DNA from: Antedon mediterranea
Taxonomy: Eukaryota > Animalia > Echinodermata
Length of the DNA stretch: 64,000 bases
Reading direction: 5' to 3'
NCBI RefSeq assembly: GCF_964355755.1
Contig: NC_092673.1
Coordinates: forward strand, 2,418,001 to 2,482,000
This document shows positions 65-62,367 of the stretch, one piece after another. Each line of letters opens with the position of its first letter. Position 1 is the first letter of the stretch. Made by a program: the position numbers and the translations under genes. Below the pieces are notes generated by a model, which was not told the DNA's origin, did no database searches, and was given only the letters and a program-made list of their open reading frames with translations.

Positions 65-9049
<8,985 letters not shown>

Positions 9050-27240: not shown

Positions 27241-30200
27241 TTATACAGGAGGTGGTGGAGGGGAAGAAAGAGAAGATCTAGGCCTAATTTTGGGTTTTAT
27301 TTGTACCTGTGGCCTCCCGTTCGCAGGCTTTGGCAGTACCTTTGGCTTGTTAGCAATATTTGGAGGAGGGGGCCTAACAGGTGGAGGTGGTTTTATTGGT
27401 GAAATTGGCATATTTGCACTATTTGAGTTATTTGTATTAGGGTATGTAGGTTTTAATGCTGGCAGCTTAGGGGGAACCCGATTCCTCCAACTTGAATCGC
27501 CGTTTGATGTCCTAGGAGCTACACTCGGTTTTACAGAAGTTGATGGAGGAGGGTATGGTCGAACTGGAGTAACAGGCTTAACTACTCCTATCGGTTTCAG
27601 TGGAGGTGTAGGCTTGGGCGGCGTAGGCTTAGGCGGCGTAGGTTTAGGCGGTGTAGGCTTAGGTGGTGTAATTTTAGCCGGTGGAGGTTTTGATGGAGCC
27701 GGCCTAGCTGGTGCTGGTCTAACCGGTGCGAATTCAACTGTGGCTGTGGCAGGAGAAAAATTCATAGGGTAAGATGGTATATCAGTGGCGGAAGTACCTG
27801 AGGAATGTTTGGATGAGTATCCTGATGAATAACCTGAGTTGCCACCTGTATCTGAGTACGAACCCTGAGCCAACGGTACTTTGTGCTCAATCGACAAAGG
27901 CTGTCCTGGTGACGTGACTGGTTTACGCAGTTGCTTTGTATTGCTTGAAGGCTTAGGTCTTTTATAGTTCCTGGAACAGAGTTAAAAAAGAATTTAATGT
28001 ATAAAGAAATAACAAAATTTAAAATGATTGTAGAAATAAAAAATATAAAAAATAAGGTAAAAATAATTAGAACATTCATTCATTCTTTCATTTTTTCAAT
28101 AATAGAAAATAATATATTAAAAAATAAATAATAATATTATAACATTTAAGTAGTAGTAACAGCTAAATAATTAGTTCTCTTTTTATATGCGCAAAAGGCA
28201 GAAAAGTTTGAGGAACAGACACAAACAATCTTTTCATTTCTGCATTGACAAAGAAACAAGACTCACGCATTTCTATAGTTTTTCCATTTTGCAGCAATAA
28301 CCTCTCGTTTTATGTACGCTCCGGTTGCTAGGAGTCCAATGATGGGTAGAACTACAAGTAACATGACAATGATGATGACTGTGCTACTGCTTGAACCAGG
28401 CACTGCAATCAGAAAAAAAACAAACACTTGTTTGTTAATGAATAATGAGTATGGATAGTAACAAAAGCAATAACATGTTGTACATTCTTTTATGAAATAT
28501 TTTGATTTCAAAGATGAACAATTGCTTATATTAGTACAGTTAACTCTCCCAATACCAAACTTTCTGAAAACCAGGTAACTCTCCCAATACCAGACTTTTC
28601 TGGATGTCCAAAAGGTAACAAATTCATTTTTACCATTAAAAACACAAAGTTCCTTGAAAACCAGACAAATTTGGACAGCCCAAAAGTGTCCAGTATTTGG
28701 AGAGTTGACTGTATAAATAAAATAAATAAATTATCTTGGTTGAAAATTGTTCGTGTATATTTAATCATGTACTATACCACACTGTAGGTGGTAACATTAC
28801 AGTCAATAATATAATGAATAACTTTACTGCGATACACACAAAAAATAAAACTGGACTCCAAATATCAAATATCACAGAAAGAGTACAATGGCTCATTCAG
28901 AAGAACACAAAGTATAAAGCTCTCATGTCTACACTATCAAACTAGTTTAACAAAAAAGTTTGATGTGCCTTACTAAATATGGCAGTGATATGCTCAAATA
29001 TGGCAGTGATACTACATCATTATGTCCATATATGGGCACATCACATTTTTTTGTCACATAAAGTTTGATAAGTGTGGACAGAGCTTTACAGGAAGAGTAC
29101 AATGGCTCATTCAAAAGAACATATAATATAAATGCATTATGAATTATTAAAAATAATATTATTATAGTGAGCTGCATCATAGGACTAATTTAATTACTCA
29201 GGTCAATTAAATCAATTGCTATTAAACCATTGTACAAGATATATTGAATAAACACTGGTTTCATGCGTCACAACATATTTTGTTTGACATTGAAAATTAC
29301 TACAAAAATTAATATGTTTAGCCTAATTCACCAAGTTTCATTTTCAATTTATGAATATTAGCAACATTTTTAAGGTCTATGATTGTTTCAGCCGGCTATC
29401 ACAACAACAATTGACTTGTGAGCATGCTCAAACAATCTTTAGTGTACAGTGAGTCATGTGGTGTAATGGGTAGTGATACCCTAATAGTGCCATCAAGAAC
29501 AAAAAGAAAATATAGATATTTGAAGAAAAATAGAGTTAGGGTTAAGTATAAAATACATTAAAAAAAACCTTTATAATGATATTAATACAAACTTTCATGC
29601 AAATTGTGCAAAAATTTAAATATACACACAGTGCCTTGTATATTTTGTGTGATTTTATTAAATCAAAATATACACTTTTTCGTCAGCTTACTTTTATACC
29701 TATTCAAAGATTGTTATCAGAGAATTACAAAAAAAAATATGAAAGAGTGATTGGTTCGTTTTTTGAGTACCTTTTATGTCTACTTCATTAGTGACATTTA
29801 AAAAAATACCTGTTGTTTCTACTTCATTTGTAACAAAAGGAATGGAAGTGACTAGAAAAAAAAGATAAAGTATAAACTACAGTTAGACACAAATCTAATA
29901 TTAGTATTTATACAGGTAAAATTATACGGGTAAAAATATATTAGTTAAAATATTTCTATATAACTAATAGGAAATTTCTATATACTATATCTGGACCATT
30001 GAGCTTGTCGGCAATGACTTTAATAGTACGTCTTGTTTGTGATAGATAGAATGAAGAAAAGAAGATGCAAAAGAAAACAATAAAATTAAAATTAAACAAA
30101 AGTAATAAGATTACAGTAAAACATTCCAAATAAGGCAATAAGTAAAGTATACTTATGTATTATTACTATAATTCACTATGATTCAATTTTTTATATTTAA

Positions 30201-33200
30201 TTCAATACTTTTTTGACAGGCACAGAAAAATTCTAAAAACAAATTATTATTAAACTTTCAATCTAACTATGAATTGCTTTCTTTGAATTGTATACAACTT
30301 TATTTAAATTATATTACACATAATTAAAATTGTAAAGAATTAAAAAGCGGGATTATTATCAAGAATATAGCTGTACTGGTATTGTCCACACTACTGTCCA
30401 TACTGATTGCCTTCTAAGTTTTCTTAGATGCAGGGGCGACTGTAAAAAGGTGATTATCATAAAAGCGGATATATTTCCAACAATTTTATTCCAGTCTATC
30501 TTAAATACCAATGGTTTAATTTAAAGGAATTTATATATATTATTTATATATGCTGTACAACCACAGACTAGAAGGCTTTGCATTATTAGTATCCATAATG
30601 TATTATTTATGTATATGGTTAAATCTATATTTAGAATTCTTATTTCTAATATTATTTTTTCACAAATATTCTACAAACAATTATTATTAATATTAAAATT
30701 TATAATTAAAGTGTAGTATCATTACAGTTGTGTGAATTACAGTACTAAGTATAAAAAAATGCAATACACAAAAAAAACAACAAAAAATGCACATACAGAT
30801 GAGGTTATATACAGTAATGCACTTGAAATGGAATATGAAAATGCTTTAATAATATTATTACAAATGGCATATCCAAAGACATGAAGCAGTAGAGCATGTC
30901 AACCGACTGAGCATGATCACAGACCATTTGTGAGTTGTGATAGCTTTTGTAAACGTTCCAAATTTAACAGATGTTAAAGCTATAATAAAATTAACATCTA
31001 TTCAATTTCTTATTTATAAGTAAACAACATCATATTTTTGCTTTCTTTTTTATTGTAATTTTCAATGTCATTTGTAGTTTTTTGTGCGTAATTTTTTAAA
31101 CGTAATTTATTGTAAATAAGGACTTCTATTTTTGTACAGCGCTTTGGTCTCTGAGAAATATATAAATCACTATAATAAATAATATACCAAGTACAGAGAC
31201 ATGAGTAAAGAATATAAAATTATAATGTTATATTTTGCATTTTTTGTACTGAAAAAAAGTGTAAACTGGATAAAACCCCTAAACTGAATTCATATAATTA
31301 TAAGAAAACTAATATAAATATATAACAATAACATTCAAATATTAATAAAACATTCAGTTTACTGATGCAGTACTTTATAATGCACATTCACACAAGACAG
31401 ATAGTAATAAAATGAAATAAAACTGAAATTTAATATATAAATATAAAATAATAATCATTCTCAAGTTACTTTTTGTATAATAAAATGTATAGAAATAAAG
31501 TATTTTTATATAGTGTTAAAATGAATAAACATTTAAAGATTGAATTTCTTTTTAAATTGGGAGACATGAATAACAACATACTACAAAATCTGTGTATTTC
31601 CATAAATCAAATTGTGTTTTTTTTTGTCAAAGTTTGTCAATATTTGCTATACGACTGAAATGATTGAATGTTTAGACCTTTCGTTAATTTATAAATTGTT
31701 TCTTATTTTAATTTATTATTTGTTCAAATGTCATACACCCACTTCTAATTATAGTCAAGCAATCTTGCGTACGCTTGTAAGCTAATCTTTTCAGCAATGT
31801 ATCAGTGTAAACATATGTTTAGGTTTGCTTAAAAGAATATGTTTAGTGCACCAGTGGTTCTAAGTATTGATCAGTGTAAACACATGTTATATTTGGTTTA
31901 AACACTTAATTTTAAAGAATGAATATTCTGAGGTTTAAACTAAAAAATGTGCCTAATAATTGGTGAGGTAAAATTGAACATTATGTGGGTTTAGATTAAA
32001 TTTGATTATATAAATCTATTAGTTTATACTCATCAGCCATGGTACTCTTTTTGTGAGGATACTTTTTTAAGAAAGGTTACATAACTTTTGGGTGCTTTTA
32101 TAACTATGCCTTCTGTTTGTTAACATCTTTGATTGGCTAATTTGTTTTATTATGTCATTTTGTGACTTGTATATCTTATCCTTTGTTACAATTCTCTTCA
32201 CCTGATGATGGGCTATGCCTGAAACACGTCCTGTTAATAAATTTATATTGAAGTAGTTTTTTTTGTTTGATTTTGATTTTTTCTTCTACCCTGCCTATGC
32301 AGTTCTTTGATATATACATAATACTGTAACTGGATGATATGTTGTGAACAATACAAATATAAAAAATTGTCAATAATGGTCAACTTACTTGGTTCCGGAA
32401 GTCTTGCTGGGCCACTATCGATACTCCCACCATAGCCGGGATCTCTACAATTAGGAGGTCCCCACTCACTATCACAATGGCAGTTGTTATTACTGTTACA
32501 CACCTACAGGTGGATCATATATGGAATGTTTACTAAGTATAGTAGCTATACACACAATATAGATTTACTTGAAATTGTATGTTCAAATTTTAATAAAGTT
32601 CATTAATTAAAGATGTATTTGAAGATGAATGAAGATTAATAGATCATTTTGTAGTTTTATCACAGAAGAAACTTATAAAATGACAAAATAAACGGATAAA
32701 TTCAACCAAAAACCCACAAGTTGGCAGCCAATTTGACTATTTTTTGCTTTAAATTACAGTTTTTTTAGAATCCGATCCAATTTTTGGTCAAAGTGAATAG
32801 CTATTACATGACATTAAAATGGCATATTCAACAATACATCTTTAAACCTAATTAACTGTGAATGTTTAAATTATCAAATTGATGTGTTAATTTGAATATA
32901 TTTATTTATATGATATGTATTTACCCCACGTCCATAGCAATTTTTATTGCACGGTTTGATTCCAAGGTCAGTTAGGTTCTTGCACTGGAAATTACTGCAA
33001 ATCTGTAGATAAAATACACATATACAAATTAAGAAATTGGTTGAAATACGTTGATTTTCTGTCAATTTATACAGAGTAACATAAATAATAATAAGTAACA
33101 AAGCTGTTTGGCCATACCAAAAATAACAGAAACAATAAGAAGAATACTGTCTTCGCAATACAGAAGAGGTCATTGCAGATGTTCTGCTGTGGCAGACAAA

Positions 33201-36200
33201 ACATAGACTTGCAAAACAAGGAGACAGATACTGGTATGCAGAGAGAAGAACTGGCTGTCACAATGGCAGATAGGAAGTTATGGAGGAATCTAGTCATATA
33301 AGTTTGGGTATGTCCCGGAACAAGTAAGTAATATAACTAATTGAAAGAATCAGAAGACTTAACTTTCCCAACCAGTTCATTTTTCTTATAGAATAGGCTT
33401 CATCAAGACACTGAGCTCGCCTTACCAAGATAGGAACACGTAACAGTCCTTTGATCTTATGTCTAGCAGCGACAAATACCAACAGTACTGTACTGTCGCA
33501 GCCAGAGATAAACCCTTTGATCAGCGAAGCTCAGTATCCTGTTGTTAGATAGCCTTGACTTCATTAAGACATTTGCAAGCAGACCTTTTTTCGCTAAGCA
33601 TGTTTGATAAATTTGACTCAAGTTCCTAAATTTGTTTCATAATAATAATATAACCTGCATTGTACTCACTGAATTAGGACCGCACGGTGCTCCATCGACA
33701 ACGAGCCCGGGGTCAGGAACATCTTCGCCAAAATCAACTGATGCTACTTTACATTCGTGTTGGTTGAAGTTTTCATCGTACGTATTCAGAACCTGTGATC
33801 GCACCAATGAGCCGATGATTGGGTAGGTAGGACCGCCCTCACAGAATAGCTTTCCACACATGATATCTCTGTACAAAGCAAGAAAATTACCTTTTGTATT
33901 TTGAACTTTATTTTGTTCAGTGAAAATAATTTTTTTTAAATTTTTAGTAATGACTGAAATAACTTTCTGCAAATGTAAGTTTTTAAATATTTTTTTTATG
34001 AATGAAATGTTTGATAAGATGAAATATTAATATAATTGTATCACATATTAAAACCGAGTAGAACTCCTATTAAGACACAGCTTCCGGACCTAAAAAAGTC
34101 ACCTCTTAATGTGCGTCACCTGAATAGTGGTTTACTGTAGTTTTAAATCATACTCGTCACTCGTTTTACAGAAACATGTCCCCTTCATAGGATTGTCCAA
34201 AAGGGGTTCTACAAAATATTCATAAATTTACGCACTATATAATAATTTTCATGCACACCAGTAGCATGCAGAAGTCATCAATTAACTACTTTCTACACTA
34301 TTTATGTAACAAATAAAATCACATCAAACAAATCAAAGATGGCGATGAAAGATCGTATTAGTTGTAAATGTAATTTCAGTCATTAATTTTATGAATATTC
34401 ATATATACATAAATTAATAACCACCAGTCATTAAAATGAATTCAAACATATGTTAATGGTAAACACACTTGAACAAGAATTGATGTGATATGATTTTTGC
34501 ATCTATAAATGTACTGATTTTGAATAATTTTTCTGTTTCGCGAAAATAAATATGGCAACTATTTTAATTTAAGTCTTTTTTTGCATGCAACAATTTTATA
34601 TAACATGCATCTATTGCTACATAATCTAAAGCATTCAATGGTCTAATACAGTGCTATATGCACTCGGTGTATAATATACAAATAATGAATGTTTATGAGT
34701 GCAATGGTACAAATAATGGCACGAGGTGAATGATGAAAGGTTATATCAACTCGGCTTTGCCTCGTTGATATAACCTTTCATCATTCACCTCGTGCCATTA
34801 TTTGTACCATTACACGAATACAAAACATTCATTATTTGTTTTATATAACATCTAAATAACAAACAAAAATGTTTCAAAAAGTACTATTTAACGATCGTTG
34901 AATAGTGCGTACTATTGCACGCCATGTGACCCACATTCGTCCAATCAAATGACAGGAATTTATATAGGTGTTATATAATATGCATTATTTAACAAAAAAA
35001 CAATATGCACACATATGCTTAATGCATGGTTTTATTTAAAAAGGAATTTTAAATTTCGGGAAGGAAACCAAAGAATATCAAAACGAGTAGAGCATTTAAA
35101 ATCACACGCTCACAAACCAGTCAATGTTCTGATAGTACCTGTATCTGTGTAATTTATTGTTATTTGTACTGTAATGTATTTAGTAGTATAATCCTATATT
35201 TTCATACAGAGCCCCTAGTACTATATTCTGTGATATACTGTAGTTGTGTATTACCATAGATATGGTATGGTATTACATAGATTGGTATCACATAGATTGG
35301 TATTACATTATTTAGTATTGGTATTTACATAGATTGGTATTACATAGATTGGTATTACATAGATTGGTATTACATTATTTAGTATTGGTATTTACATAGA
35401 TTGGTATTACATAGATTGGTATTACATAGATTGGTATTACATAGATTGGTATTACATAGATTGGTATTACATTATTTAGTATTGGTTTATTTAGTATTGG
35501 TATTACATAGATTGGTATTACATAGATTGGTATTACATTATTTAGTATTGGTATTTACATAGATTGGTATTACATAGATTGGTATTACATAGATTGGTAT
35601 TACATAGATTGGTATTACATAGATTGGTATTACATAGATTGGTATTACATTATTTAGTATTGGTTTATTTAGTATTGGTATTACATAGATTGGTATTACA
35701 TAGATTGGTATTACATAGATTGGTATTACATAGATTGGTATTACATAGATTGGTATTACATAGATTGGTATTACATAGATTGGTATTACATTATTTAGTA
35801 TTGGTTTATTTAGTATTGGTATTTACATAGATTGGTATTACATAGATTGGTATTACATTATTTAGTATTGGTATTTACATAGATTGGTATTTACATAGAT
35901 TGGTATTACATAGATTGGTATTACATAGATTGGTATTACATAGATTGGTATTACATACATAGATTGGTTTGTATATTAACATAAGCAAACTTTAGTTATG
36001 CTCTATCGGTTCACTAACCTTTGGTATAGTGACATCATGGAGCTTTAAATTAACTTCATTCATTTGATTTTTAAATGACTATGACACACAGTATAACAAT
36101 GAGTATATTGCATGACTATTTTTGTTTTAAACAGAACAAGAATTAACAAATAGCTGAAATACTACATGGAAATAGGGTTATATAGTCTGCCTTAGAGGGA

Positions 36201-39200
36201 GGGTTAGATGTTAAGGTCCATGATCAATTGATGTTAAGGAGAAATTTGACGATGTTGAGAACAATTTGATGAAATCAAGTGTTTCTTTCCATATATAATA
36301 CCCTATAGATGTTTTATTGAGATTATGTCATGCATGAATGAATTTCCAAGTAGTCCACAAATACATATATAAATTAAAATTTGGAATACAAATTTATTCC
36401 AAGTGTCAAATCTATAGCTACTCTATCAACAACACAAACGCTGAATTTTTTTCCTTTTCATTAATTTAAAAGTAATGACTTAATATTAAAACCGCTTTAA
36501 AAAACCTACCAATGAAATGAAAGACTTCATTTTAAACATGTTTAAAATGTTTACCACTAATCAAGATTCTGAATTAGCAATTAAACCATGAATAATCTCA
36601 GTACATGACATTTACCTGAACTAATGACTCATAACGTTGATATAGGAAGAGTTGGAGACATACCAACGACAAATATGGGTTTTTTATTAGATGGAATATT
36701 CCTGTACACGTGTGTATAAACAAGGGCTCACAAAATAATCCGTAGCGAGAGATTATAAACAGATGACACAAAGTTATTGCAGGGGAATTGGGGTTGGTAG
36801 TAAAAATTGAAAATTACAGCCTCATGCTGGCTAGGGCCCTGCATATGCAATTAATATTACATTGCAACATTTTCTAGGAGTAGATTTGTGTTGAGAATTG
36901 ATTATTTATTGGTCTAGCAGTCTCAATACAAAGCACAGTTAAGATTGGCTAGGAGCGTAAAAGGAAACAAGAGTCATAGATTAATGTTTGGATTTCTATA
37001 CTTAGATAAGTGGAAGGTTGTCGACTGGACATATTTTTAAAATTAGTGAATATATTATTAAAGTTGATTAATAAATCTGACAAAAATACAACCTATTAAA
37101 ACATTCAGTGTTATTGTAATATGTGCTTTATTTGAGACAATATTATAATATTAATATTATCCACAAAAATTAGAAAACTAATACTGTTGTATTCAATATA
37201 TTTCTTTGAAGCGAATCGTCTAATAGTGGATTGTTAGGGAGAGAAAGCAACAAAAGCCGACACATAAAAGCGTTGTATACAGGATGATTAGAATCGGTGG
37301 TGGCGCTATTCATCTACAAAAGCCGAGAATTCTTCACAACTTACTTTTGGGCACATCTCACAATTACATCCCCTTTTATTCCACAATTGGCATTATCAAT
37401 TCCATCTTTATTATTTTCAAAGCATTGATATATACCAGCTGTCGATTCTGCACAATATATAAATAATGGTAAAAAATCAACATTTTTAATATTCACATAT
37501 ATTTATACAGTCAACTCCATCAAAACCGGAAACCTTTGATGAATTTTAATCGAATGAATTCTGAAGCTCTGTCTACACTATCAAACTTAATGCGACAAAA
37601 AAATGTGATATATGGACATGATGATGTCTACCATATTTGGGGATATCACGCCACCATAAATGGGCACATCACAATTTTGTTGTCAACCTAGTTTGATAGT
37701 GCATACAGAACCTAAACCATGTTACTAGGAAACAATGCATTATGGGAAGTCCAAATAATTCCAGTTTTCACAGAGTTGACTGTATATCAACTGTTTCTTC
37801 CCTATCCTAGACTTACTTTTTAGCACATTTAATGTATGTTTCGTCGTCGCCGTTTTTCACTGCACCACAATTTCCTCGAAATAATCCATTTGTATTGAAA
37901 TCATAGCATTTGTAATATGCTTGTTTTGATACTGTAAGGTAGGCAGGCATTTGTTTAAATAAACAGTAGTCAATAAATAGTATTAAAAAAGACGTCATAC
38001 ACAGCTTACAATGATAATAATTGTATTATAACATAAGCTTACAATGATAAAAATTGTATTATAACATACGAATAATAATAAACCAAAATTGAGCCTACAA
38101 AAAAGTTTTTTAGGCTAAAAAAAAAAGGAAATAATTGAAAAATGGTTTTCTTTGATAAAGAAAAATATAGTTAACACAATATCCTATTAAACAAGAATAA
38201 CCAAAAAAATCTAGATTGCTAACAAATCGAACTTTGAACTTTGAGAAGCACACTCCTATCTGCCGTGTTTATCAAGCAGAAGGTGCCGGGTTCGAATCTC
38301 TGTTGAGGTGACTTTTTTTCATTCTCAAAGATTTCCTCATCTTATCGTTTCAAATAAATTATTAAAATTTTCAGTATATTGCTGGGCAGTTTAGAATTAA
38401 TGTTCTATGCCTAATGTGTTTATATATATTTATATAAATGTGGGTTAAATGTGACTCACCGTCTCCCCATAAGGTCTTACACATGTTGTTATATGTGATA
38501 CATTGGCCATCATAACATGTAGCATCCTTCTGGTTCATGCAGCTATCACCATTCTGTATGTAGACATTCGATGGACACTGCAACACACAAAACATTTACT
38601 AAGTATGGCACATATTCAAGTGAAGCTGGGAGACCTCGCATACATATAATAGGAAGCTTTCAATTTCTGACGATTGTTTGTTATTGTGTCATTGAGCATT
38701 TCTCAAAGTCCCAGCTTGCAAACAATGAATTAAAATGACATAACTAGTACATACTAGGACCCTTAAGCATCAAACATTTTTGTGCACATTTGTCTATATA
38801 CGAACAGCATGACTTAACATCCCATTCGAAGGACGAGGCAAGAGTAAAAGATGCTACAAAAACAATTACTTACATCTTCCGATTTACCCGTACAATATTC
38901 CGGCAGGTCACACTCGTTGACCTGTGGTCGACAGAGTTCTGCAGGTGGTTTAATCTGACAGTTGTCGCAGCATTCTCCAATAGCGCATGTAGCGTTTTCA
39001 TGAAGCATACAGATCTCTGGTACGCAGCAAGGGTTGTTACAGTACTAAATGAAAAATATTTCTTTAAGCCAATATGCCTAAATATGGTAATTATATGACA
39101 TCATCATGTCAATGTATGGGCACATCACATTTTATTTTCACTTAAAATTTAATAGTGTAGACATAGCTTTAAAGGAGCTTTTAAAAGAATGGAAAAATAG

Positions 39201-42200
39201 TGCACTATCAAGGGAATTTAATTTGTATACTAAATACTTTTAATGTTTTTGCTTATCTCTTAAAATATAGGAATGTATATGTGTTTGACTGATTGATAAA
39301 AGAAGGGTTGGATGTTCCAGAAAATGCTGAGATATGTGCAGAGACATTCACCATGGAAAGAGGAAGCCAAGGATGGAGTTGCCTGACATGAGGAAGAAAA
39401 TAAAGTGAGAGGTTTATGGATGGTAGAGGAAAAAGAGAAAACAAATATTAACTTAACAAATAATTCTATCATACCTCAACGGAACCACAATCACACTCCT
39501 CTCCCTTCTCCACATAGCCATTTCCACAGATTGGTCCATCAAAGATTTCCTTAGGATAGTTGAAGAGGCAAGAGGCTAGGCCCTTCCCTAGGGAAGTCTT
39601 GAGGTATTCCTTAGTACACTCTGACCAAACAGTAGGAGGCACTGATCTGTAAATTAGATCACACGTTTTTGTTACAAGTAAACCACTCAATCTATCAGTG
39701 TAAAAAACCTTTCAATTTCATTTTTGGGCCTTCTTTTTAATGTGTGGCAGTGCACTCACTTCCAAAATGCCTTCGAATTGTGCCATTTACATGCAATATG
39801 TTGGTGAAATGCATGATGGGATAACTTAACGTCACCAGTATGAATTTTGTATATTCATTTTAAAAGCATCAGTTTTCCCAATGCTAGTGGTTCATAAGCA
39901 TGAGCACAACCCACATATTATAATTCAGTTATTATTTTATATTTGTGATACTTGTTAAAAATAAAGTTTTTTATGTGACTAATAAAACTGTAAAGAAGAC
40001 ATTTAATTACATGAAAATAGAAAATGTAAAAACATATAAACATTTAACTGAACATTTCTACAATAAAATTAACAATTAAAATAGCAGTAAAATGTATTAT
40101 ATAGCCTGTAGCAAAGCAGGTTTTGCCTAAAACATGATAAAAACAAATTAACGGTCACATTCCTCTTAACTTGTAATACACATGGTGCAACCTTGTACAC
40201 ACTCAAGATAACCCTTTAATTTTAGGTAGAATTCCATAAGTTATGTGGATCGGGTCAAAGGTTAAACAAACCAATAAAAACAAGGGACCCAATTGGATAG
40301 ACGGGTAGGCTGTAGTGAGTTAAAATCAAATTAAAAAAATGATAACTGTTATTATTTTAGAAGAAATGTTAAAGAAGGGATTTAGGAAAATGTTATTAGA
40401 GTAATAAATAATTAACTAATTTAATGAGATACAATAGTGTTATACAATAAGTAGACTTAAAATGCACTAGTAATAGAATAGAAAACAAAACACAAAACTA
40501 AATATAGTACAGGATTTACAGTGAATGTGACAGGGACAGGAGAAACTAATTATATTAATAGTATTAATACTGTTAATAAAGAGAGGTTAAAAATTAAAAC
40601 ATGACCTTTTTAAACTGGATCTCATGCATACATAATTTTTAATATAATTTCCATTGGGAAATAAATATATGATTCCCTATTTTGTCAGATTATGGTCAAA
40701 TAATAATCTTTGTCAAACAAACAAGGAGAATTTTAACATTACTGCCTATGAACCGTTTAGCCCCAAAGGTGTCCCTTTAATAGAGGTATGTATGTTGGTT
40801 TTTAAATATGATTTTCATTCTAATACATAGCTTTAAATATTTGCCACTCCTATATGTATATCTTGAAAACAAAAGGGCTGGAGTATAAGATAAAACACAA
40901 CATAAACAAAAACACGCTATTGTATTAATACTAAAGAAAAACAACGGAAAGAAGCGGAACACCAAACAGGGAAGTTTTAACAGGCAGATGTTAGTCAGCC
41001 CTTACCCCGCCGAGGGTCCCATGACACACCCCGTGGGTGCGTCACACTGGCACCCAGAAGCATCATGGTAGAACCCTAGGTTGTGCCCCATTTCATGAGA
41101 CATGGTTGATGCTACGCCTGCTGGGTCGGTGGCGTGGTCCTGTGAAATACATACAGTAATGTTATGCGTTAAGTTTAGTAGTAAGTATTATTATTTTAAT
41201 ATCTAATAAACAATTGTGATGAATTGCACTTCCTTCCGCTAGAATCTGAATCATTTCAGACTTGCAATCTTTAAATATAAAAATTGCTTTTAAACACAAA
41301 GTGTAATTTATTTCCATTTCAATTTGTTTGGGCAATATTGTCACGTGCCCATGTATGGAAGTGATATACCCAAATATGGTAGTGATATGACATCATTATG
41401 TTAATATATGGGCACATCACATTTTCATATAAAGTTTGATAGTGTAGACAGAGCTTTAGCCAACCAAGTAGACATAGTCATAGAACAATTCTGGTAGGAA
41501 ATTACGATCCATTACAATTGTTTATTTCAGTAATCTAAAAGCCTTACGATGCCACTGGTCCCATGATACAATCAATATTTTCAGCTTCCTCTGCACATTC
41601 ACATGTTGCTTCATCGTGATAAAAGCCCAGATTATGACCCATCTCGTGGCACATAGTGGAAGCTACGCCTGCTGCCTCCTCAGAGTGGTCCTAGTGGTCG
41701 TTATGGTGCAAAAGACCGCAGAGTATGGTAACATTTTGATATGTAATTGTTATACAACAGTTACGTTACAGAATACATTAAAATAGGCAATTATGTAGTC
41801 AATGCTTGTGACAGAATAAAGAAGATATGATGATGTCATTGATGATGTTAATGATGATGATGATGTCAATGATGATGTCAATGATGATGATGAAAGAGGA
41901 AGATGGCGATGATGATGATGTCAATGATGATGATGTCAATGATGATGATGATGTCAATGATGATAATGAAAGAGGAAGATGGCAATGGTGATTTAAATGA
42001 TGTTTTACTGTAAATATGAACACACTCAAGACACCAATCGTAATGCTGATGATGAAAATAATAAATAATGGGATGATGACAAGAGAAAGATGATGATGAT
42101 TAAAATGATAGTACTGTAAACATGAACACATACAATTTTGATGATGAAAATAATAATGATGATAATGATGATAAAAGAGGAAAATGATGATGATGACGAA

Positions 42201-45200
42201 AGAGGAAAATGATGATAAAAAAAGGAAAATGATGATGATGATGATGAAAGAGGAAAATGATGATGATGATGATGATGAAAGAGGAAAATGATGATGATGA
42301 TGATGATGAAAGAGGAATGGTGATGATGATGAAAGAGGAATGGTGATGAATAAAGTAATGACGAGGATAATGATGATGAAAGAGGAAAATGATGATGATG
42401 AAAGAGGAATGGTGATGAATAAAGTAATGACGAGGATAATGATGATGAAAGAGGAAAATGATGATGATGATGATGATGAATAAAGTAATGACGAGGATAA
42501 TGATGATGAAAGAGGAAAACTGTGATGATTAAAGAGGAATGGTGATGAATAAATGATGAGGAAAATGATGATGAAAGAGGAAAATGATGATGAAAGAGGA
42601 AAATGATGATGATGATGATGAAAGAGGAATGGTGATGAATAAAGTAATGACGAGGATAATAATGAGGATGAAAGAGGAAAATGATGATGATGAAAGAAGT
42701 GATGTTAATGATATACACCCTAAAACATACCTCATTGACTCCAGCTGACTTTGCTATAGAACACATTGAACCAAGGGACGCCATACCAACAGTACTACCC
42801 TCAAATGTTCGGCCACTATAAAGACAAAAATAATATATAATATTATCAAGTGTTTAAATCCTAAAACACACCTTGACTATTGGGTTTAATATTTTGTAGA
42901 AAAAAAATATTCTGATTTTTCATAAAGAATAATATAGAATTACTGTACAGTCAAATCTTGAAAAATTACAAACGCTCCCAAAACCAGATTTTTTTTTCTT
43001 TTTACCACAAAAAAAATGGCATACCAGAATTTGTGGAAAAACCAGACAACTCAGCCCTAGGATGCCTGGTATTGAGTTCAATGTATAATTGTTATTATAT
43101 CATTTGGTGGTTAGGGAGTGGAGTATGGTAGAATGAAAAATTATCAATTTCAAAGAAACAAATGAAGACTTGTACAAGAACAAATACATTGATCACATAC
43201 GTCATAAATTGAGCGTTATCATTCGGATGTTTTAAGTTATCTTTTCTCCACGCCTGAAATGCTCCCATCGTTTTAGCTGCATCTTCGTCAAAGATTATCT
43301 GATCTCCTTCGTTCCACACTGTGACGCTGGTGAGAGCAACTCGTATATTCAATGGCTTATACGTCTGTAAAATCAATTTGAAATAACACAGGATGTTCAG
43401 GAAAAGTAATACAAAAATATGCATATAAAAGTCAAATGAACAAGCTAATATTAACATGTGTAATTTCAATAACTACCCTGGAGACATATACTCTGGTATT
43501 AAAAACTACATTACATTTAAAAAGGGGAGTGCACAGTACTGTAGGCTGAAATTATTTATCTCATGCATACTCTAATCTCTTGGTGCCTATATAATATATT
43601 AACTGCATATTTTTTTCGCAAGTATTGTCAATGTACTTAGTATAAAGTACAAATTATGTCAGAGTAGGGCAAAACATCTGACCAATTACGGAAAATAAAG
43701 TTTGAAATATTGAATCATAATTGTTTACTTCACGTTTAAAAAAATATCTTATAATATCTATTCGCAATATGTGGGAATAGAAGATATTAAAAATAAGTCG
43801 GGATGGTTAAATAACAATTAGTAATTCTAATTAATTAATTAAAAATTATTATATTATTTTAAAAAAAGTATAAAGCAAGTCATCCTAAGGTCACTCATAA
43901 GCGTTGGTCTTTAGAGGCCAAGAAAATGTAAAACTATTAAACCATCAGGTTAGGCAACTTACAACATCCATTATGTTGGCAACTTTCTTACACCGTTCCT
44001 CTGTGCTCTGAACACTTCCCAGGGAAGTGAACTACAGGATAAAAAACAGACATTTACAGTTAGATTCAATCAATTTTACCTTATAAGGAATTTCATATAC
44101 TTTCTAAATAAGTTTTCTCTTTGTGTCATACTCATGTTGGGTTTCTCTTTCAAATTAAGAAACAAAAGAAGAAGCACTTTCTAATAATAATTCTGTTTTT
44201 CTTCATGTAGTATTAATGAAAGCTTATCCCGTTTGTAAATTATATTCATTGTTTGCCACTTATATATAAGCTTAGAATAAACAGAACGACTCAAGTAGGA
44301 CTTGTTTAATACACTGATGCATATTTGCATGTTGTTGAACAATATTTAACATCTGTAGGTAGACAATACGATACTATCATCAAACCACATAATTATTAAG
44401 TTCATTAAGAAAAGATGAGTACTTCAGGATTTGATTTTGTAAGCATTCTCACTACAGAATATCACCGTATGATTGATATATGCTAAGCATAGAAGACAAA
44501 AGGTAGTTTATGCACTTCATGTCATTAGCATCAAACAAATAGAAACGACTAATAAGACAGACTTGCTAACTGTCCAACCTCTATTAAAGCTCTGTCTACA
44601 CTATCAAACTTTATGTGACCAAAAAAATGTGATGTGCCCATATGGACATGATGATGTCATATTACTACCATATTTGGGCACATCACACTTTTTTCATCAA
44701 ACTAGTTTGATACTGATAGTGTCTTCTGAATTCAAAAATTTATAGTACCTCTGCATTATCAGCAACTATTGCAAGTTCAATAAACTTTGTCTCAGTAAAT
44801 GCATCTCTTTTCTGGCGACGAGGTAGCGTTTGTAGTATTTCTAGATGTTCTTCATGTTCTGGACGTTTAAATATCTCAGTATCATCTGAAAAAAACACAA
44901 ACAATGATCTTTATCTATTTTTTAAATTTATAATTTAATGACATGCTTCATTAATTTAAAAATTAATTTCACACGATTTAAAAAGTACACAACTTAACCA
45001 ATTTCCTCTAATTTTACGATGACAAAGAATAGTTGATTGAGAAAGAGGATAAAGTCAAATAAAATGATGGCAAAAAAATGCAAAGAGAAAAAAACAACAG
45101 CCAGAAAAGACAGGTTATTACCCCACATGCAAATGCCTAATCAGCTATCTCCATTAATATTCAAATATTCATAACATTATTTACCAATAAATTTCTTCTT

Positions 45201-48200
45201 TAATTGAACATCTTCTGGTTTGTAAATTAGATGATCAGTTGTCGAATCCTTGAACGGCTCAATATAAAATGTCTCAAAATCAACAACAAATATACCACTA
45301 TGGGAAAAAAAAACTTGATATTAGAAGTATTTGAGGATTTGATAGCTTTTACCAAGACTCATGTTACCTGAGGACAAGACTGCTATAGGTTTAACTGTAC
45401 TATGTCATGAATTAAAAAAATTATATGTTGTAAGCCGTTCAACGCAACGCAAACACAACGCAATGACAACGTGTTGAATGCGTTGGGATTTTTGCAATAA
45501 TTCTGTCCTGTAGTGTACTTTAAAACTGGGGGCAAGAAACACAAGGGCCAAGAAACACAAGGGCCTAGCTGGGCCTCAAAATTGTAAAATGATTATTACT
45601 TATTACATACAGATTATTTTTGGTTATTTATTCCAATATTACGACAGTTACTTAAAATATAAATATTAACATGATAGTGAAATACAAAAAAAACCACTCG
45701 TACCTCAAAAAGTAAATGCTGTCTGAATGCTAATGTAACAAATACATTAACATTACAGCATAGAATAACATTAGCAAATGTTATTAGCATACCTTATTCC
45801 TGAACATGTATCTATAGCAACAGTTGATGAATTGCTGTCTCGTACAGTACCATGATAATAACAGTGATGCTGAAAAATATATATATATAAATAAGTTAAA
45901 AAATAAATAAAAATATAAAAAATTAAGATGCCATTATAAAAATACATTTTCAAATGGAATTAATCAAAATGAATCAATGGGAAAAATTGTCATTTTCAAA
46001 TTTAAATAATACAATAAGTAGAAGGATGCTAACACCGAAAATCGAGCCTTTCTTTAAAATAGGGAGCACAAAGAAAACGGGGACTTGGAGGGTGAAAGTT
46101 TGTGCTGACCAATTGTTAGGGTTGCTACAGTACAGTATGTATGCAATAAACCACATAATAGCAAGTATCAATCATTTTTTTGGTTGTTCTTTTTTAAGAT
46201 CTACTCATAACTCCTCATTACGCTTCCTGTCATGTTTTCCTTTTGGTTCCTCAGGGTCTAAGTCATCAAATTTAATATTAAATTCTATTACCATAATTTT
46301 ATTATGAACTACTGTAATACTAATATTAATAGCACTAAATTATGTTCATTTTACATACCTTATTGTTTAAGCGTGGTTCCCACTAGCGACGCAACGCAAG
46401 GACGTAACGCAACGCAAGTGAATTGACCAATCACAAGCGATGGCTTATTCGCTTGTGATTGCTAACTTTCTATAACTTCGCTTGTCATTGGTTAAAACGC
46501 TTGCGTTGCGTTTACGTCCTTGCGTTACGTTCTAGTGGGAACCAAGCTTTAGGGAGGGGTTGGGTGGGGGAGGGATAAGGAGGAGAGAGGTGGGTGTAGC
46601 AGCTTGAAGGCCAATTTACATAGACGAGCAGTAAAACAGTAAAAAAAAAAAAATAAATAAATAAATATATAGAATCATAGATACAAATTTTTAGGATTCT
46701 AATTAAATAGTGAAATGATTTCTTTTCCTTATAAAATCAATTTCACGACATATAAGAAGTAGGTTAAATTAACAAAATTATATTACGGAAATAACCTTGA
46801 CAAATAACACCATACTTAATTTCATGATCACAATATAACCATTAATTTTTATTTAATAAATCATTTATTATTCAACGATCAGTTACTTTGAAGAAAGAAT
46901 TCTGAATTCTTTCACAGAAGTCTGCTTGATGATGTAATACATTAGCCAATCAATAATCAATGTAAATAGTTGCAACCTGTTTCCATGGTGATTTGGGAGT
47001 TTCAATATTTAAAGTAAACAGAGAATACTGTAAGGAGTGTAAGGGCCTGTTTGTATTTAGCAAGAAAGAATGATAATGAAAACATTTCTTCTGGTTTCGA
47101 TTCGTATAATGATTATAAGAAGGAATGATATTTGAAAATGGGTCCTTTTTATAATCTTATTTCGATGGTTAAAACCGGAAAGAAGAGAAGGAGAAACAGT
47201 TTCCAAGAAGCAATATTTAGCTGCAACGCAATCATGGTTTTAACTTGACATCACTGCAAAAGGTCACTGAAAGGTCCGAAAATTTGAATACTGTTTGTGG
47301 GTCACCAAATAAGAAAGTTTTATTTTGAGTAAACAATTTGATATTCAGTTTGTGACATTAACAAACAACTGGTTTCGAAAAAAAAAAAAACTGTTCATAA
47401 AATATCCAAGACGACTTTTCTGGTCGGTAGTACTGTATACCATAACAAACTATACAGTAGTAAGGAGATAAACATAGGTCAAAATTGCAGAAAACAATTT
47501 GCCTTAAACATTAATTAATAATTATGATTTCATAATAGTATATTCTTCTTATTAAGCCATAATTTTTGTAAAAATAGCGCATTTAATGAGCCTACTGTAG
47601 ACTCCCCTGGTAAACCAAACATTTCAAAATCAAGGCCAAAACATGGCATTTAAATCACAGTATACACATTGGAAACAAGCTATTTCCTTTCATCTTCCTC
47701 ATGAGCTGGCCATACACGGATGACCTCTTTAGAGTTCAACAAATAATTCCGCATGTTTTTGTGCAATTGACATTTTTATTCGTTTCCAGTGATTGAATCT
47801 AAAACATAAAATATATACAGAAAGTCTACAACAATAACGATAACATAACATGAAGATGAAAAGTTGTTGATAATAAAACTATGTGTAGACTATCAGTATT
47901 CAAACTTTACAATGTGTGTAGATGTTTGTGTTTGTTAAACCTGTAACACAGTCTATTGAATTGTAACAGTTAAATCTATTACAATGCTTAATACAATTCC
48001 TCTGCAAGTTTCAGTCTTGAAAATAACCTTGAAAATATAATCATTTTCCAAAAAGTTGCAAATAATACAAGCAATACAGGTAGTTGTACAATATTTCATA
48101 ACAGACAAGAAAGAAAAAATGTTTCAGTCTAATTGTCGAAATAGGTTAAGAAATAGTTATAAATTTAAAGTGTACAACCTTTTAGCCATTCATTTGGTAA

Positions 48201-51200
48201 AAAGGTTATACTTTATTAAAACTTGTCTTAAGAAGTGGCTTCTACTAATCTTTTGTTAATTCAGACTTATGGTGTTGTATGCTGGGTGCTGCGTAGGTCT
48301 GAACAGGCCCTAGTATTGATATAATTTAGAGATTTGAAGAGAGATTTATAAATTCAAGCCAGCTGTTCTGAAACAACTTTATTTCCCTGGAGACATCCAG
48401 GGAACATTGTATCTAACACCTCATTTTCTAGCAGCCGCGTCATTTCCTTTCAAATTTTGTCTATTATTTCACTTCATCAGTAGGGATGCACAATTACTGA
48501 ACGGCACCCTTATCATTTCAAATATCTAGTGGTATCTTGTCCTCTATTCTATAAAGCTTAGATAGATAAGACTGCTTCTGACAAATCAATGATTTAGCAT
48601 TTTGTTCAGTGACTATTGGTATGATTATTATGGCACCTTTCCATAAATGCATTTGATTGTATAGACTATAAAGAATAGGCAATGCAGACAATACTGTTGG
48701 CATAGCTACAGTACTGTAAACAAACTATAAAATGTTTAAAGAAGGGCTTGACAATTGATTCATCACATTACTAAGTTTTTAAAAAAGGGCACTGAGCATG
48801 GTACGGCATTCCACCAATCCATACCTATCATACAAGAGGATTTCCACAGATCCCATATCACACTTTCTGATTTGAATGCAGTGGCGATGCTATAAGTGCT
48901 TACTGGCTAAACCCACCAGCTTATGGGAGGGGGGGGGGGGGAGCAGTCTCCAGAGGAAAAAAACAGGCATTAAAATATGTTGAAAGGGCCAAAAACACTC
49001 GAGGCCCCATTGTTGGAGGGTCACTTAAGGTTACTAAACCAAGACCTCAGGCCTCTGAGTTATGTCACAGTCAGGTGATTTTTCTGGTTCCATTGTCCAC
49101 ATTACTATTTCTAATCACCTGGATACAGTTTTACTTTTAGTAGGTCCTTCAGTTGTATGTACATATTGGGACATGATATAAATAGTAAATGTGGTCAAAA
49201 TTGAGAGGATGAGCTCACCAACCACACAATAGTCATTATATCAGGCAGGAAGTCTTTACTTGCAGCCTCTTCCAGGGTTTCAATGGCAGGTAATGGTAAA
49301 TGGCCTCTAAATTGAGCATTGGTTGCGAACTACTAAAGCGTCATAGTTTAGAATGGTTTAATGGCCTCTAAATTGAAAGTCAATGCATTGGTGGATGACT
49401 ACTGTAGCCTCAATTAAGAAAGTTAGTAGAATTAGTTGATTACTGTATCCTGGTAAAGCTCTGTCTACACTATCAAACTTTATGTAATGTGCCTATATAT
49501 GGACATATCACTACCATATTTGGGCATATCACACTTTTTTGTCAAAAATGTTTGATAGTGTAGTTTTAAACAAATTATTGGACCTGCATCTTCATGATCT
49601 GAATGAATGAAGGACAAAACAAATGAAATGCTTACCTTAGAATGTGGCTTATTAACTACCCTTTGTTCATTCGGTAAATAGCTTATTACAACATAATTTT
49701 CAGGAAAAAGATTTCTATAAAAAAAGAAATTAAAAATATATAATTTTTGTTTATCTATGTATATTTTTAAGACCAATAACTGTTTGTCTAAAATCGAATC
49801 AACTTTAAAATTATAATTTTTGTTCAAAATTTTTAAAGCACTTGTGCTTATTTTCCCATTCCATTATTTTATAATTCTTTATTATTTTATTTTATGGGCT
49901 TTGATTACATTTTGATGTACTGTACACATTATTAAAATATATAAAAGGTCTGTTATACACATCACAGACACAGAATATTGTATATAAGGTCTGTTTACAC
50001 AGAATATATACATTCCCTTGTATTATTAAAATTAAAACAACATTTTAGAAAATCCTTCATTTTTGCTTGTCACATGCAAGTGAAACAAGTGAAGCATATT
50101 TGTGATTATTATTAAAATGCATTCTTATTGTATATTGTATAAATGTTTTTATTTTGATCTTGGGATAAAAATGAATGAATAATACAGAAAACAATTACAG
50201 ATTTGGTATTGAAAAACAATATGAATCACTCAAATATAGTTCAACAATACAAAATTAGCATAATTTACTGAATTCATATTCATAATGCAAACCTTATGGG
50301 CAATCAAATTATACCAACAATAACTATAGTAGGCAGGTCCAGTGTTAATATTTATGAGATACAGTAACTGTAAATTATCTATAGGAACAGACTTCCTGAC
50401 GCTCTCAACAAATATGAGATAATTCCACAGAGAAACAAAGCAATATAAAAACTGGAATATGTTATATGACTCAAAGAAAGTAATAGTTTGGCTGAAACTA
50501 AGAGCACAATAGAAATTTAATAATTAATTTATTTTTAAAATAGGTTGAAATTAATAGCAACCCAAATATAGATATTTTGTATGGATATTTATTGAAATTC
50601 ATTTATTTATAGTTTATTGTTTGTGAGAACCGACTTTTTTGTGTGATTATTCAGCAGAAAAACTCAATCTCAATTAAATAATGTTGTGTTAGAATAACGT
50701 CCTATATATCAGGAAAGTTGTGTAATCGGAGGTAATATACTTGAAAACCTCAATTCAAGATCCTTAACCAAGAATAAAGGTTGAAGATCCTTAACCGAGA
50801 TTAACGGTTGACACTGTATACGTGCAAGTTTTAAAGATAAAAAAAATATGCTAAATAATGGATAACTTTAATCTCTTTCAGTATGCCTGTTTAATGATGT
50901 TGTTTAATGTAGTGTATACCATTCCATACGCCGCTGCATGTGGTAGATAGTCCCTATCTAATCCATTTTATTTAAACCCATCATGAAAGCTCTAGGTGTA
51001 ATGGTACCATATCAAGCAGAAGATTTCCTGTTTGAATCTTGGTTGAGGTGGCTTTTCCTCATTCTTACAGATTTCCTCATCTTAAAATTGTGTATAGTTT
51101 TTAGCCTATAATATTAGAAATTATTCAGTACAGTTCAATTTATACCTAATTTTACTTTCTATGGACCAGAGATTCTAAAATAAAAGATTTAATTTAATTT

Positions 51201-54200
51201 TTTAACTTCATTATAACATTAACTATTATATTAATAAAGGTAAATTTATAGAAGGCGTTTTTTAATGAATAGATCTGTTAATATTTCGGTTGAGTTAATG
51301 GGCAGAGACCTAGTAATCTCTCTATGTCTTACTTATTATGTCAAAAGAGATGGATGTTGAAATTAAAATTTGTTATTTGCTCGATATATAAAATATAGGT
51401 TATAATATCGAAATAATAACAATATAACATTTTTCCTTTCATACAATTCTGATAACGATAGGATTGAGTTCAAAATGCTATTGTCTAAGTATGTAAAAAG
51501 GGATGGATGGCTTGGGGTTTTAATTAATTTTCTAATTATCTATTTGCCCGAAATAAAATATATGTTTGTTATCGAAATGAACAATATAAAATGATTTTTC
51601 CTTTTATACAATTCTGATAACGATAAGATTGAGTTCAACCGAAGAATGACTCATCAATGTTTTTAATGGTGTATGAATAATGCTACATTTCCCTATAAGG
51701 CGGCTATCATAAAATTCTACCATTGTGCATTTTAAAATGCTCGGATATTGTTACCCAATATATTTCCATCTTTATATTCAAACGTCCAATCAAACAATAC
51801 ACGAATCCTTGACTTGTGGTGTCGGAAGATCTACTTCCTGAGTAGAAGCCTCTTAATCCGAAATAATGTACTGTACCCCATGAGGTGTTTACACAGCACA
51901 CCTGTGTTGAAATTTAAGAGGTTTTAAGGAAGAGTACCAGGTACGCATGGTACCGAAATGGGTAGGAGTAGGCCTGCTGTGGGGTTTGCTGACTCATCAT
52001 AAATTGGGGTAATATATATAGATGATGAAAAGCCTACATGACATCTAAGAAAATCCAATCAAGTGAATGTTAAAGTTCATTGTATATAGCTCTGTCTACA
52101 CTATCAAAATAGTTTGACAAAAAAAGTGTGATGTGCCCAAATATGGTAGTGATATGCCCAAATATGGTAGTGATATGACATCATCATGTCCATATATGGG
52201 CAAATCACATTTTTTTTAAAGTTTGATAGTGTAGACAGAGCTTAAAGAACACCATTTAAAATCCCATAAAACATACACTACAGTAATATAAAATGTCCTA
52301 CAAAAAAAGTAATATCTAAATTAATTTCTAGAGTTGCAATTATGGTTGTTAATTTGTCAATTCATAGTTTAGTTTGCTGTACAGTACATAAATAGGCTAA
52401 TTTGATGTCAAATTTCAGCATTCCGAAATACTGAATGTGTCATGTGAGGCTTATGACGTGATCCAGTAACAGTGTAGTGTGGGAGCATACCTATGTATAA
52501 TATTTGAATAAATCAAAATTGATTTTCGAAAATTTGAAGAAATTCGTTGGATAAATTCTTGTGACCTACTAAATGAGGCAGAAATAAACGGAAAGCAGCT
52601 TTCCTATCAAAATCACTTTCACTTAATATTAAATAGAAAATTATACACAGGAATTATAGGTCTGCCATGACGTGTGATAATATAAATTTAATAAGCACCT
52701 GGACATTTCTAATTTTGCTACTGTTTGGTAAGGTCTGTTTTGTAATGATAATACAGGTTCAAGTCTCCTAATACCAGACACCCCTGGCCTGACTGTGACA
52801 GGATGTGTCTGGCTTTTCAGCAATTCTGGTTCAGATTGTGTTTTTTATGGTAAAGAATTTAACCTCAAGTGTGGTTCTGTGAAAGTTTCTGGGTTTTCAG
52901 TGAGCCTGGTATTGGGAGATCCAATTTCAACGGCAATATAGACCCCATTTACACTTACGTTTGGGTCCAGAGCCGGTCCTGGACCGGTTGCAAATATTTA
53001 CCTTTTAGGCCGGCCCCAGAGCGTTTACACTAGCGACGCAGATTACTGGTTGTAAATAATTTTATCGGAAGTACCATTGCATGCTGGGATACGAAGTACA
53101 GTTTGTTCACATTTTTCTCTCTCGATCGTCAATTCAACGCGCAAACCGACCGTTTTATATTTATACTGTATTGTTGTTTTTTGTCCCATTAAAAACAAAT
53201 TGAACCCCACTGTTTTATATATAATAATAATATGGCTGTATTTTATGTATATGCGAAACAAGCGGAGGAATACTTTATTGAAAGAAGATGTCTGAAAATA
53301 AATTTAACTATATAAATGATGAAGGAAACAAATTGTCATACAAAGGTATGATGTACTGAGAATGTCGGATCGTCATAACAACAACCTCATAAAAAGGTCA
53401 AACGTTGTTCACGGTTCACTGCGTAAGCCGGCCCAAACGTAAAAGCCGCTCCTGAACCTACCTGGAGAGGTGGCCCAGATCTGCGTCCGGCCCAGGGCCG
53501 GCCTAACTTTTTGGAGTATTTACACTTATCAATTGCCGACCCAGGGCCGGCCTAAATCGTAAGTGTAAATGGGGTCATAGATATAGTATACCATGAAAAC
53601 TGGCAATACAACACAAATTGTATTAGCTTTAGGTGATAAATTTTAACTTTAACACTAACAGTGCTAATGTGGACTACACTACAGTTAAGCTCTGTCTACA
53701 CTATCAAACCAGTTTGACAAAAAATGTGATGTGCCCAAGTATGGTAGTGACATGCACAAATATGGTAGTGATATGACATCATCATGTCCATATATGGGCG
53801 CATCTCATTTTATTGTCACTATAGTTTGATCATGTAACTTATTTCTCCATGGTTTGATAGTGTAGATAGATAGTGTAGCGATAGTCACATAGATTCTACC
53901 AATTATACACAGTTAGTCAAAGATAATTAAAAATGTTTTTTTTTTTGTAGATTTGGACATGGTTGGTATTTTGTAGGTGAAAGACATTCAAGAGTTCATA
54001 TTTGAATACTTTAATAAATCTAATTCAATATTATATAGTACAGGTAACTTTCAATGGCAGAAAGGTGTGTAACCGGAAGCATTTGATCTTCCTGTATTTA
54101 ATCTAATCTAAATAAACTGAGGATTGAAATTTTTTTAAATTCAAATATTTTGAGATTCTAAAACGAGAACGTTTGGATGGATGTACAGTATAAGAAATTT

Positions 54201-56047: not shown

Positions 56048-56148
56048 CTATGAAAAATATAAAAGAAACAAATAATATGTTTAGTTAAATATTTAAAAAA
56101 AATAGTGTTGCCAGCCTGTAAAAAATGCTGCACCTACAGTACAGTAGT

Positions 56149-56350
56149 TAAGCTTGGTTCCCACTAGCGATGCAATTTAACAAAACCTACAAAACGTAAG
56201 AAAATGCCCTTCCAATAATTATGTTTGCCCCCGCCTGCGTGAAATCAAACCTGCAATGTCTGTCTGCAGCATTGTTGCGTCGTCGGCTCCCACTTGTGAT
56301 TACGCAATACAACACTTATTGTGTTGCGTTCTAGTGGGAACCACACTTTA
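56149..56350. mobile_element. MITE family 2 copy
   Basis: Same TIRs and same internal tgtttgcccccgcctgcgtgaaatcaaacct as 1552-1743. Confidence 0.75.
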
Positions 56351-60730: not shown

Positions 60731-61049
60731 CACGTTCACTGCCACGGCGTATTTATACTGTACGTCAAAAATTGCGTGTCGCTACTTGCCAAGACGTAAT
60801 ACTACGTCAAAATCGTAGCACTTTTGTATTGTATGTAGAATCGCTGGCAGTGGTGATTGGAACAGGAATTATCGCATGGCAGTTTATGAATGATGTACGT
60901 AAACGATAATCTAAAAATAAATGTCATATGTTTGTTTGTGTTTATTCCCTCATGCATTGAATATGGCGCCCTCACACTCAATATAATCATCTCAAACGGG
61001 ACTTGGCACTGGGACAGAAATTACGGAAAATGCCTTGGCAGTCAATGTG
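60731..61049. mobile_element. piggyBac-like MITE
   Basis: TTAA|cacgttcactgcca ... tggcagtcaatgtg|TTAA. Confidence 0.7.
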
Positions 61050-62145: not shown

Positions 62146-62367
62146 GGGGATAAATTGGGGATAAATTGGGGATAAATATGGAATATGGGATAAACAGGGG
62201 ATAAATACTACTGTATATGGGATAAATAGGGGATAAATATTGGATAAATACTAGGGGATGAATAGAGGATAAATAGAATAGGAGGATAAATAGAATAGGA
62301 GGATAAATAGGAGATAAATATTGGATAAATAGGAGATAAATATGGGATAAATAGGGGATAAATAGGG
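62146..62367. repeat. Degenerate repeat of about 10 bp (ggggataaat)
   Basis: Repeated ggataaat cores. Confidence 0.8.

Follow-up and report, generated by a model that had tools for sequence, protein, structure and literature searches.

Exchange of the zinc-binding exon in an ADAM12/meltrin-class gene of the crinoid Antedon mediterranea

Related exon swaps and how the crinoid gene compares

Mutually exclusive exons that retune enzymes are already known, for example in COQ-2. Exons 6a and 6e of this prenyltransferase are exchanged in nematodes and other rhodoquinone-making animals, and the exclusive swap is tied to substrate choice (PMC7434440). The crinoid gene described here is comparable, as two internal mutually exclusive exons (A and B) exchange a part of the enzyme core. 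In contrast to COQ-2, for which the outcome was tested, the crinoid exon is known from sequence, and with the three metal ligands it carries both the catalytic Glu and the Met-turn of a protease. Furthermore, the crinoid gene has a second pair (C1 and C2), exchanging a candidate exosite.

For homologous mutually exclusive exons, Lam et al. (2021) reported that the fold is kept and surface residues near functional sites are changed; nine of their events touch catalytic residues (PMC7954323). The changes between A and B likewise surround a conserved catalytic core. The terms protease, peptidase, ADAM, Meltrin and Neu3 are absent from the main text of that study, and ADAM-type terms from its six text supplements (PMC7954323). 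In a catalogue of 236 human tandem-duplicated exon events ADAM23 is listed as the sole ADAM (PMC8373072). Like the crinoid gene it is an ADAM with homologous exclusive exons, but the human exon encodes a transmembrane segment (PMC8373072). The domain order of the crinoid gene is that of the M12B reprolysins ADAM12, ADAM19 and ADAM15 and of a sea-urchin ADAM (NP_999635); in contrast to the crinoid gene, these have one catalytic segment in all isoforms listed. ADAM23 is catalytically inactive. For exon 17 of Dscam a model of steric hindrance plus RNA structure was reportedly presented by Yue et al. in 2013. A block on joining two tandem exons is proposed in both cases, but the crinoid stems are predicted from sequence alone.

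No paper on an exon swap at an ADAM catalytic site was found in the open literature, a scope outside which the compendium of mutually exclusive Drosophila exons (Hatje and Kollmar 2013) lies; a precedent in insect meltrins may exist. The first-pass annotation had supposed the arrangement to be undescribed for ADAMs. This holds for the papers found, but RefSeq already models both isoforms. New here are the second pair C1/C2, the stems in both between-copy introns and a parallel in a nemertean.

The shares of the catalytic pocket and of the cysteine-rich domain in the specificity of ADAM sheddases are still unsettled. The crinoid gene offers a natural swap experiment in a non-model animal, with two active-site cassettes and two V-loops on one backbone, and each of the two pairs is retained in two crinoid families. 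Should the isoforms prove to be different, a metzincin would have its entire zinc site exchanged by splicing.

Table 1 Features of the ADAM gene and its alternative exons (positions in the window)
Feature	Position	Strand	Remarks
ADAM12/meltrin-class gene	27241..63769	-	End points approximate; RefSeq XP_071946871-874, Antedon mediterranea; order: prodomain, reprolysin, disintegrin, cysteine-rich, EGF-like, TM, proline-rich tail
Constitutive exon upstream of A/B	42731..42815	-	Phase-0 donor; spliced to B in an RNA contig
Alternative exon A, derived copy	41548..41690	-	Zinc-binding helix to Met-turn, 143 nt; Cys at His-1, longer acidic loop, last residues of the exon MGPVAS
A-B stem, 5' arm (predicted RNA stem)	41498..41526	-	Starts 21 nt after the donor of A
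MITE-like repeat copy	41339..41459	.	In looped-out part of A-B intron
A-B stem, 3' arm (predicted RNA stem)	41205..41233	-	End about 66 nt before the acceptor of B
Alternative exon B, ancestral-like copy	41006..41139	-	Zinc-binding helix to Met-turn, 134 nt; ends MGPSAG
Constitutive exon downstream of A/B	39475..39646	-	One RNA contig with exactly the same borders
Constitutive exon upstream of C1/C2	38460..38577	-	Ends ..CKTLWGD
Alternative exon C1	37817..37931	-	Phase 1-2; cysteine-rich helix and hairpin (V-loop); RefSeq models
C1-C2 stem, 5' arm (predicted)	37751..37786	-	30 nt after the donor of C1; transposon-terminal-repeat-like
C1-C2 stem, 3' arm (predicted)	37504..37539	-	End about 57 nt before the acceptor of C2
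Alternative exon C2	37345..37447	-	Phase 1-2; homologous to C1; RefSeq models, two species
Constitutive exon downstream of C1/C2	33670..33868	-	DIMCGKLFC..; includes hypervariable-region equivalent

Sequence, splicing and history of exons A and B

The gene was examined in a window of 64 kb, i.e. the whole stretch of DNA that was analysed (Table 1). Within it no match was found for residues 1-25 of the ADAM protein. For isoforms X1, X2 and X3 the Pfam domains PF01562, PF01421, PF00200 and PF08516 (prodomain, reprolysin, disintegrin and ADAM cysteine-rich) were detected in this order above the cut-off. An EGF domain was not matched by Pfam in these three isoforms; the protein aligns to the ADAM22 ectodomain as far as and including the EGF-like region of the latter. 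A transmembrane helix is predicted at residues 735-760, followed by a proline-rich cytoplasmic tail. In a tree of 29 ectodomains, calculated without the alternative segments, the crinoid gene falls into a group of echinoderm ADAM12-like genes, to which the sea-urchin ADAM also belongs, and the neighbours of this group are hemichordate genes and the chordate ADAM12/19/15 clade. The Antedon isoforms were modelled automatically in RefSeq under a snake-venom-like name: X1 combines A with C1, X2 B with C1 and X3 A with C2, and X4 corresponds to A with C1 less a stalk exon. This cassette exon (29772-29852, minus strand) encodes 27 residues of the membrane-proximal stalk; isoform length varies in many relatives, too.

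When exons A and B were re-read from the sequence, the coordinates, AG acceptors, GTAAGG donors and phase 0-2 given in the first-pass annotation proved accurate. Both exons have a stop-free translation, both contain CxC after the zinc motif, and B matches RefSeq XP_071946872 of Antedon mediterranea at 100%. The HExxHxxGxxH motif and the Met-turn are intact in each, from which we infer proteolytic shedding activity. Either exon alone preserves the frame between 42815-42731 and 39646-39475. With both, a stop is reached at the end of STTPPTQQA, and with neither the frame shifts and a stop is also reached; the early stop and the frameshift had been claimed, and the frame test bore them out. A and B share 28 of 44 aligned residues. 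In the core of 20 codons (AGVAST..YHD) a single non-synonymous difference was counted against 14 synonymous ones. For the 44 aligned codons, for which a comparison of dN and dS had been proposed, synonymous sites are saturated, with a pS of 0.88, and dN amounts to about 0.26. These values agree with the claim of an old duplication under purifying selection. By tBLASTn within the window every other exon is single-copy, except for the pair C1/C2.

Five sequencing runs cover the stretch. Run X1 belongs to another study than the remaining four; its record bears no RNA label, it was judged to be RNA-type from spliced joints, and it is the sole RNA library. The contigs were compared over 39200-41345 for A/B junctions. 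In one contig of this run the loose end at 39646 is the 3' end of A, in another the loose end at 39647 is the 3' end of B; hence, A and B are each spliced to the downstream exon. The loose end of a further contig, at 41141, is the end of the upstream exon, which is accordingly spliced to B. Of the four junctions predicted in the first-pass annotation, 41548 to 39646, 42731 to 41139 and 41006 to 39646 were thus seen in this one library. The fourth, 42731 to 41690, follows from length: the loose part of the A contig measures 167 nt, i.e. 143 + 24, the B contig has the same overhang, and the first 30 letters alone were read directly. No A-B or skip junction was detected among the contigs of this run listed, and contigs drop rare forms. 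The depth of A to B, back-calculated from bins in one library, was about 58 to 10, contig depth being a poor measure. The supposed mutual exclusivity is supported by the spliced junctions, by RefSeq isoforms X1 and X2, and by the same pair in the crinoid Anneissia japonica.

An assembly artefact, an allelic collapse or one dead exon would explain that exon A occurs in none of the DNA contigs listed and that the DNA contig depth beside it is low (4.2, 1.06 and 0 over 41655-41830 in runs X2-X4), and the RNA contig depth of B (9.7) is near the intronic depth of 3-8. The low DNA depth possibly results from contig filtering. Exon B is contained in single DNA contigs (39081-41383 and 39200-41345). 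As the synonymous divergence of A and B is saturated, both are spliced in a run of another study and both occur in the Anneissia models, this explanation is largely refuted and highly improbable. The exon swap at the ADAM zinc site is real, old and expressed.

Just upstream of exon A a CAT-rich array extends over about 41800-42710. The acceptor of A has a weak pyrimidine tract and an AG-free zone of 112 nt.

A search in relatives had been suggested for both exons, and both segments were found in the RefSeq protein models of Anneissia japonica (Comatulidae; Antedon belongs to the Antedonidae). Seven isoforms are listed for this species, six with segment A and one with segment B, in the combinations A with C1, B with C1 and A with C2. 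The clusters listed for starfish, urchin, holothurian, hemichordate and amphioxus have one catalytic segment per gene. Holothurians possess two whole-gene paralogues instead of an exon pair, one of them with Cys at His-1. In Apostichopus japonicus this paralogue has also the equivalent of Cys240 and the other has neither, a contrast which echoes that of A and B by way of gene duplication. A HMMER scan of the cluster representatives with exon A gave 123 matches with Anneissia as the sole close one; no other A-type exon was detected among them.

In the exon tree the four crinoid exons (A and B of two species) form a clade (support 97.7/97). Within it a long branch (1.13) leads to the pair of A exons, which is supported at 99.8/100; the B exons are placed near the base and form no supported clade in this tree of short exons. 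The 14 outgroups have a mean identity of 0.50 with A and of 0.61-0.63 with B. Between Antedon and Anneissia 38 of 48 residues are identical in A and 34 of 45 in B, and the range of the constitutive exons (0.67-0.88) covers both values. These data indicate that the duplication probably arose in crinoids, before the split of Antedonidae and Comatulidae, and that A would have evolved fast and then been conserved, B being ancestral-like.

Active site of the two enzymes

Differences between A and B that are fixed in both crinoids concern the entry loop and the position His-1, which is Cys in A and Ser in B. In both species the lower-subdomain loop is three residues longer in A than in B, Met+3 is Val in A and Ser in B, and Met+5 is Ser in A and Gly in B. 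The zinc motif of 12 residues is identical in the two exons and the active-site helix near-identical. Helix 338-352 is predicted alike in the AlphaFold models of the A and B isoforms; that of A fits the catalytic domains of ADAM8 and ADAM33 with 1.4-1.5 Å and a TM value of 0.92-0.94.

The S1' residues of ADAM10 and ADAM17 presumably fall on His-7, His-4, His-3, Met-1, Met+4 and Met+5. Among the five positions equivalent to ADAM10 S1' residues on this mapping, one (Met+5) differs between A and B in both crinoids. The pocket residues described are V376, I379, T380, I416 and T422 for ADAM10, and the S1' pocket of ADAM17 is limited by Ala439 and Val440 (PMC7916773). The lower subdomain helps to form the substrate pocket's wall and is important in substrate recognition (PMC4885070). 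Gly at Met+5 was found in 118 of 120 representatives of the first family set. The view that Ser at this position is peculiar to A was dropped, since many protostome meltrins have it as well (36 of 117 representatives). Val at Met+3 is rare (2/120 and 0/117 family representatives), yet both crinoid A and the derived segment of the nemertean Lineus longissimus have it.

We regard it as fairly probable that A and B are swapped as complete zinc sites with Met-turn and that the resulting enzymes differ in substrate or inhibitor preference, much as the first-pass annotation had proposed for substrate or TIMP specificity. Such a difference is likely because the exons would reshape the primed-side wall and the lower loops of the cleft, with the catalytic core unchanged.

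The identical zinc motif and the fact that most S1' equivalents are common to A and B would also be expected if the two enzymes were near-equivalent and kept by subfunctionalisation of expression in tissues or stages. The loop differences would then be tolerated drift, and the loop from the third His to the Met-turn is indeed free to vary across the family. Drift fits poorly with the strong rate asymmetry and the later conservation of A, with the Cys, Val and Ser that are specific to A and have become fixed in both families, and with the derived Lineus segment, which has a similar Val at Met+3 and has lost Gly at Met+5. Hence, this explanation appears rather improbable.

The cysteines allow another view of the swap, which would mainly alter stability, latency or redox control. 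The catalytic domain has eight cysteines in A and seven in B in both crinoids, and the new Cys of A at His-1 (Cys346) may pair with the otherwise unpaired Cys240. Such a disulfide, the fourth of the domain, would lock it in A, and B would leave Cys240 free. In the alignment, Cys at His-1 always occurs together with Cys240 (5/5 rows, namely crinoid A and two holothurian-type proteins, i.e. at most 2-3 lineages). In each of the 11 rows in which His-1 is not Ala, position 240 is occupied by Ser, Thr or Cys, and a large hydrophobic residue at 240 is combined with Ala at His-1 in 99 of 121 rows. In contrast, seven rows have Cys240 without the partner Cys, the covariation is confounded by descent, and the Lineus swap involves no such Cys. 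As the main effect of the swap, such control is considered unlikely, and a difference in substrate or inhibitor preference is favoured.

Second exon pair, intron stems and recurrence

C1 and C2 (12 of 35 residues identical) are a second mutually exclusive pair according to the gene models of both crinoids, in which both exons occur, and would swap the V-loop of the cysteine-rich domain. With C1 and C2 together, as with neither, the frame is shifted. The contigs over 36000-41830 consisted mainly of repeats, and no joints between exons were seen among them. The C2 copies of the two species group at 96.7/94; the C1 copies share 24 of 39 residues and form no supported clade in this short-exon tree. 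A helix plus hairpin is predicted for the segment, which fits the description of the V-loop (PMC4885070). The V-loop is a proposed ADAM exosite; according to the 2016 structural review, clear evidence for V-loop or HVR as exosites in ADAMs is lacking, as is a systematic test showing this (PMC4885070). With the pairs A/B and C1/C2 up to four combinations of pocket and exosite are possible.

Among the mechanisms of exclusivity that have been listed is a frameshift combined with nonsense-mediated decay (PMC6071210). It could enforce the exclusivity in the crinoid gene and would suffice without stems. Steric exclusion through a short intron was rejected, as the between-copy introns are too long (A-B 408 nt, C1-C2 369 nt); their AG-free zones are 61 and 65 nt.

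In each of these introns a predicted RNA stem probably helps by pulling the donor of the first copy close to the branch point of the second. Compared with shuffled sequences, the folding of the A-B intron had a z value of -4.0 and that of the C1-C2 intron of -5.7; this excess stability is partly due to the repeat copy in each. The end-to-end stem scores were 18.5 (A-B) and 24.5 (C1-C2). Scores of 7.5-13 were obtained for the remaining 19 introns, for some of which the borders in the list used deviate by a few bases. Scores of at least 18.5 were reached by none of 528 pseudo-introns, satellites excluded. The A-B stem was noticed first, and the C1-C2 intron was then tested for one. With guessed branch points, the stems leave about 45-60 nt from the donor of the first copy to the branch point of the second. 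Distances of about 45-60 nt are near the limit for splicing. Of 113 inverted repeats, the 25 longest included no convincing docking/selector pairing with the flanking introns. The arms of the C1-C2 stem also match a repeat elsewhere in the window; they may be ends of a transposon and neutral. In run X5 two variants were noted in the A-B stem, at 41222 and 41225; one converts a G-U into a G-C pair, the other leaves a mismatch.

A further swap of the zinc-binding segment was identified in protein models of the nemertean Lineus longissimus (XP_064630042-046), the one case among 10 further clusters listed. Isoform X2 differs there from four other isoforms, and the exchanged part begins with the entry loop and reaches slightly beyond the Met-turn. 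The two Lineus segments cluster with protostome ADAMs (85/90), apart from the crinoid exons; thus, with moderate support, the event looks independent of the crinoid one. The swap is likely convergent and goes back to an apparently independent duplication. The derived segment has Val at Met+3, no Gly at Met+5 and no Cys at His-1. The Lineus parallel suggests that the zinc-site exon is repeatedly recruited.

A wider reading takes the zinc exon of meltrin-class ADAMs as a recurrent, convergent switch which in crinoids, together with C1/C2, would form a two-by-two code for pocket and exosite that is regulated, held exclusive by the stems and used for cell-specific shedding. We put it forward tentatively, as a possibility of lower probability. 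If it is true, one gene sheds different sets of substrates in different cells.

In a model of Nucella lapillus the start of the zinc motif appears twice with identical protein, the first being truncated; this is probably a duplicate of the model or of the assembly.

Copies of a very abundant MITE-like family of short interspersed repeats are present more than 10 times in the window (41339-41459, 37564-37709, 39072-39171, 44585-44715, 52085-52243 and others), one of them within the loop of each between-copy intron. Arrays of short tandem units or CAT-rich sequence lie in introns of the ADAM gene at about 24400-25100, 35300-35970, 41800-42710 and 62700-63300, and a satellite with a spacing of about 285 nt and internal inverted repeats at about 17300-21500. 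On the plus strand, at about 1300-7300, there are pieces that look like exons of a receptor tyrosine kinase having Ig-like segments, putatively FGFR-like by its motifs. A single ORF of the TRIM-NHL type (RING, B-box and NHL; about 694 aa) extends without intron over 11318-13399 of the same strand.
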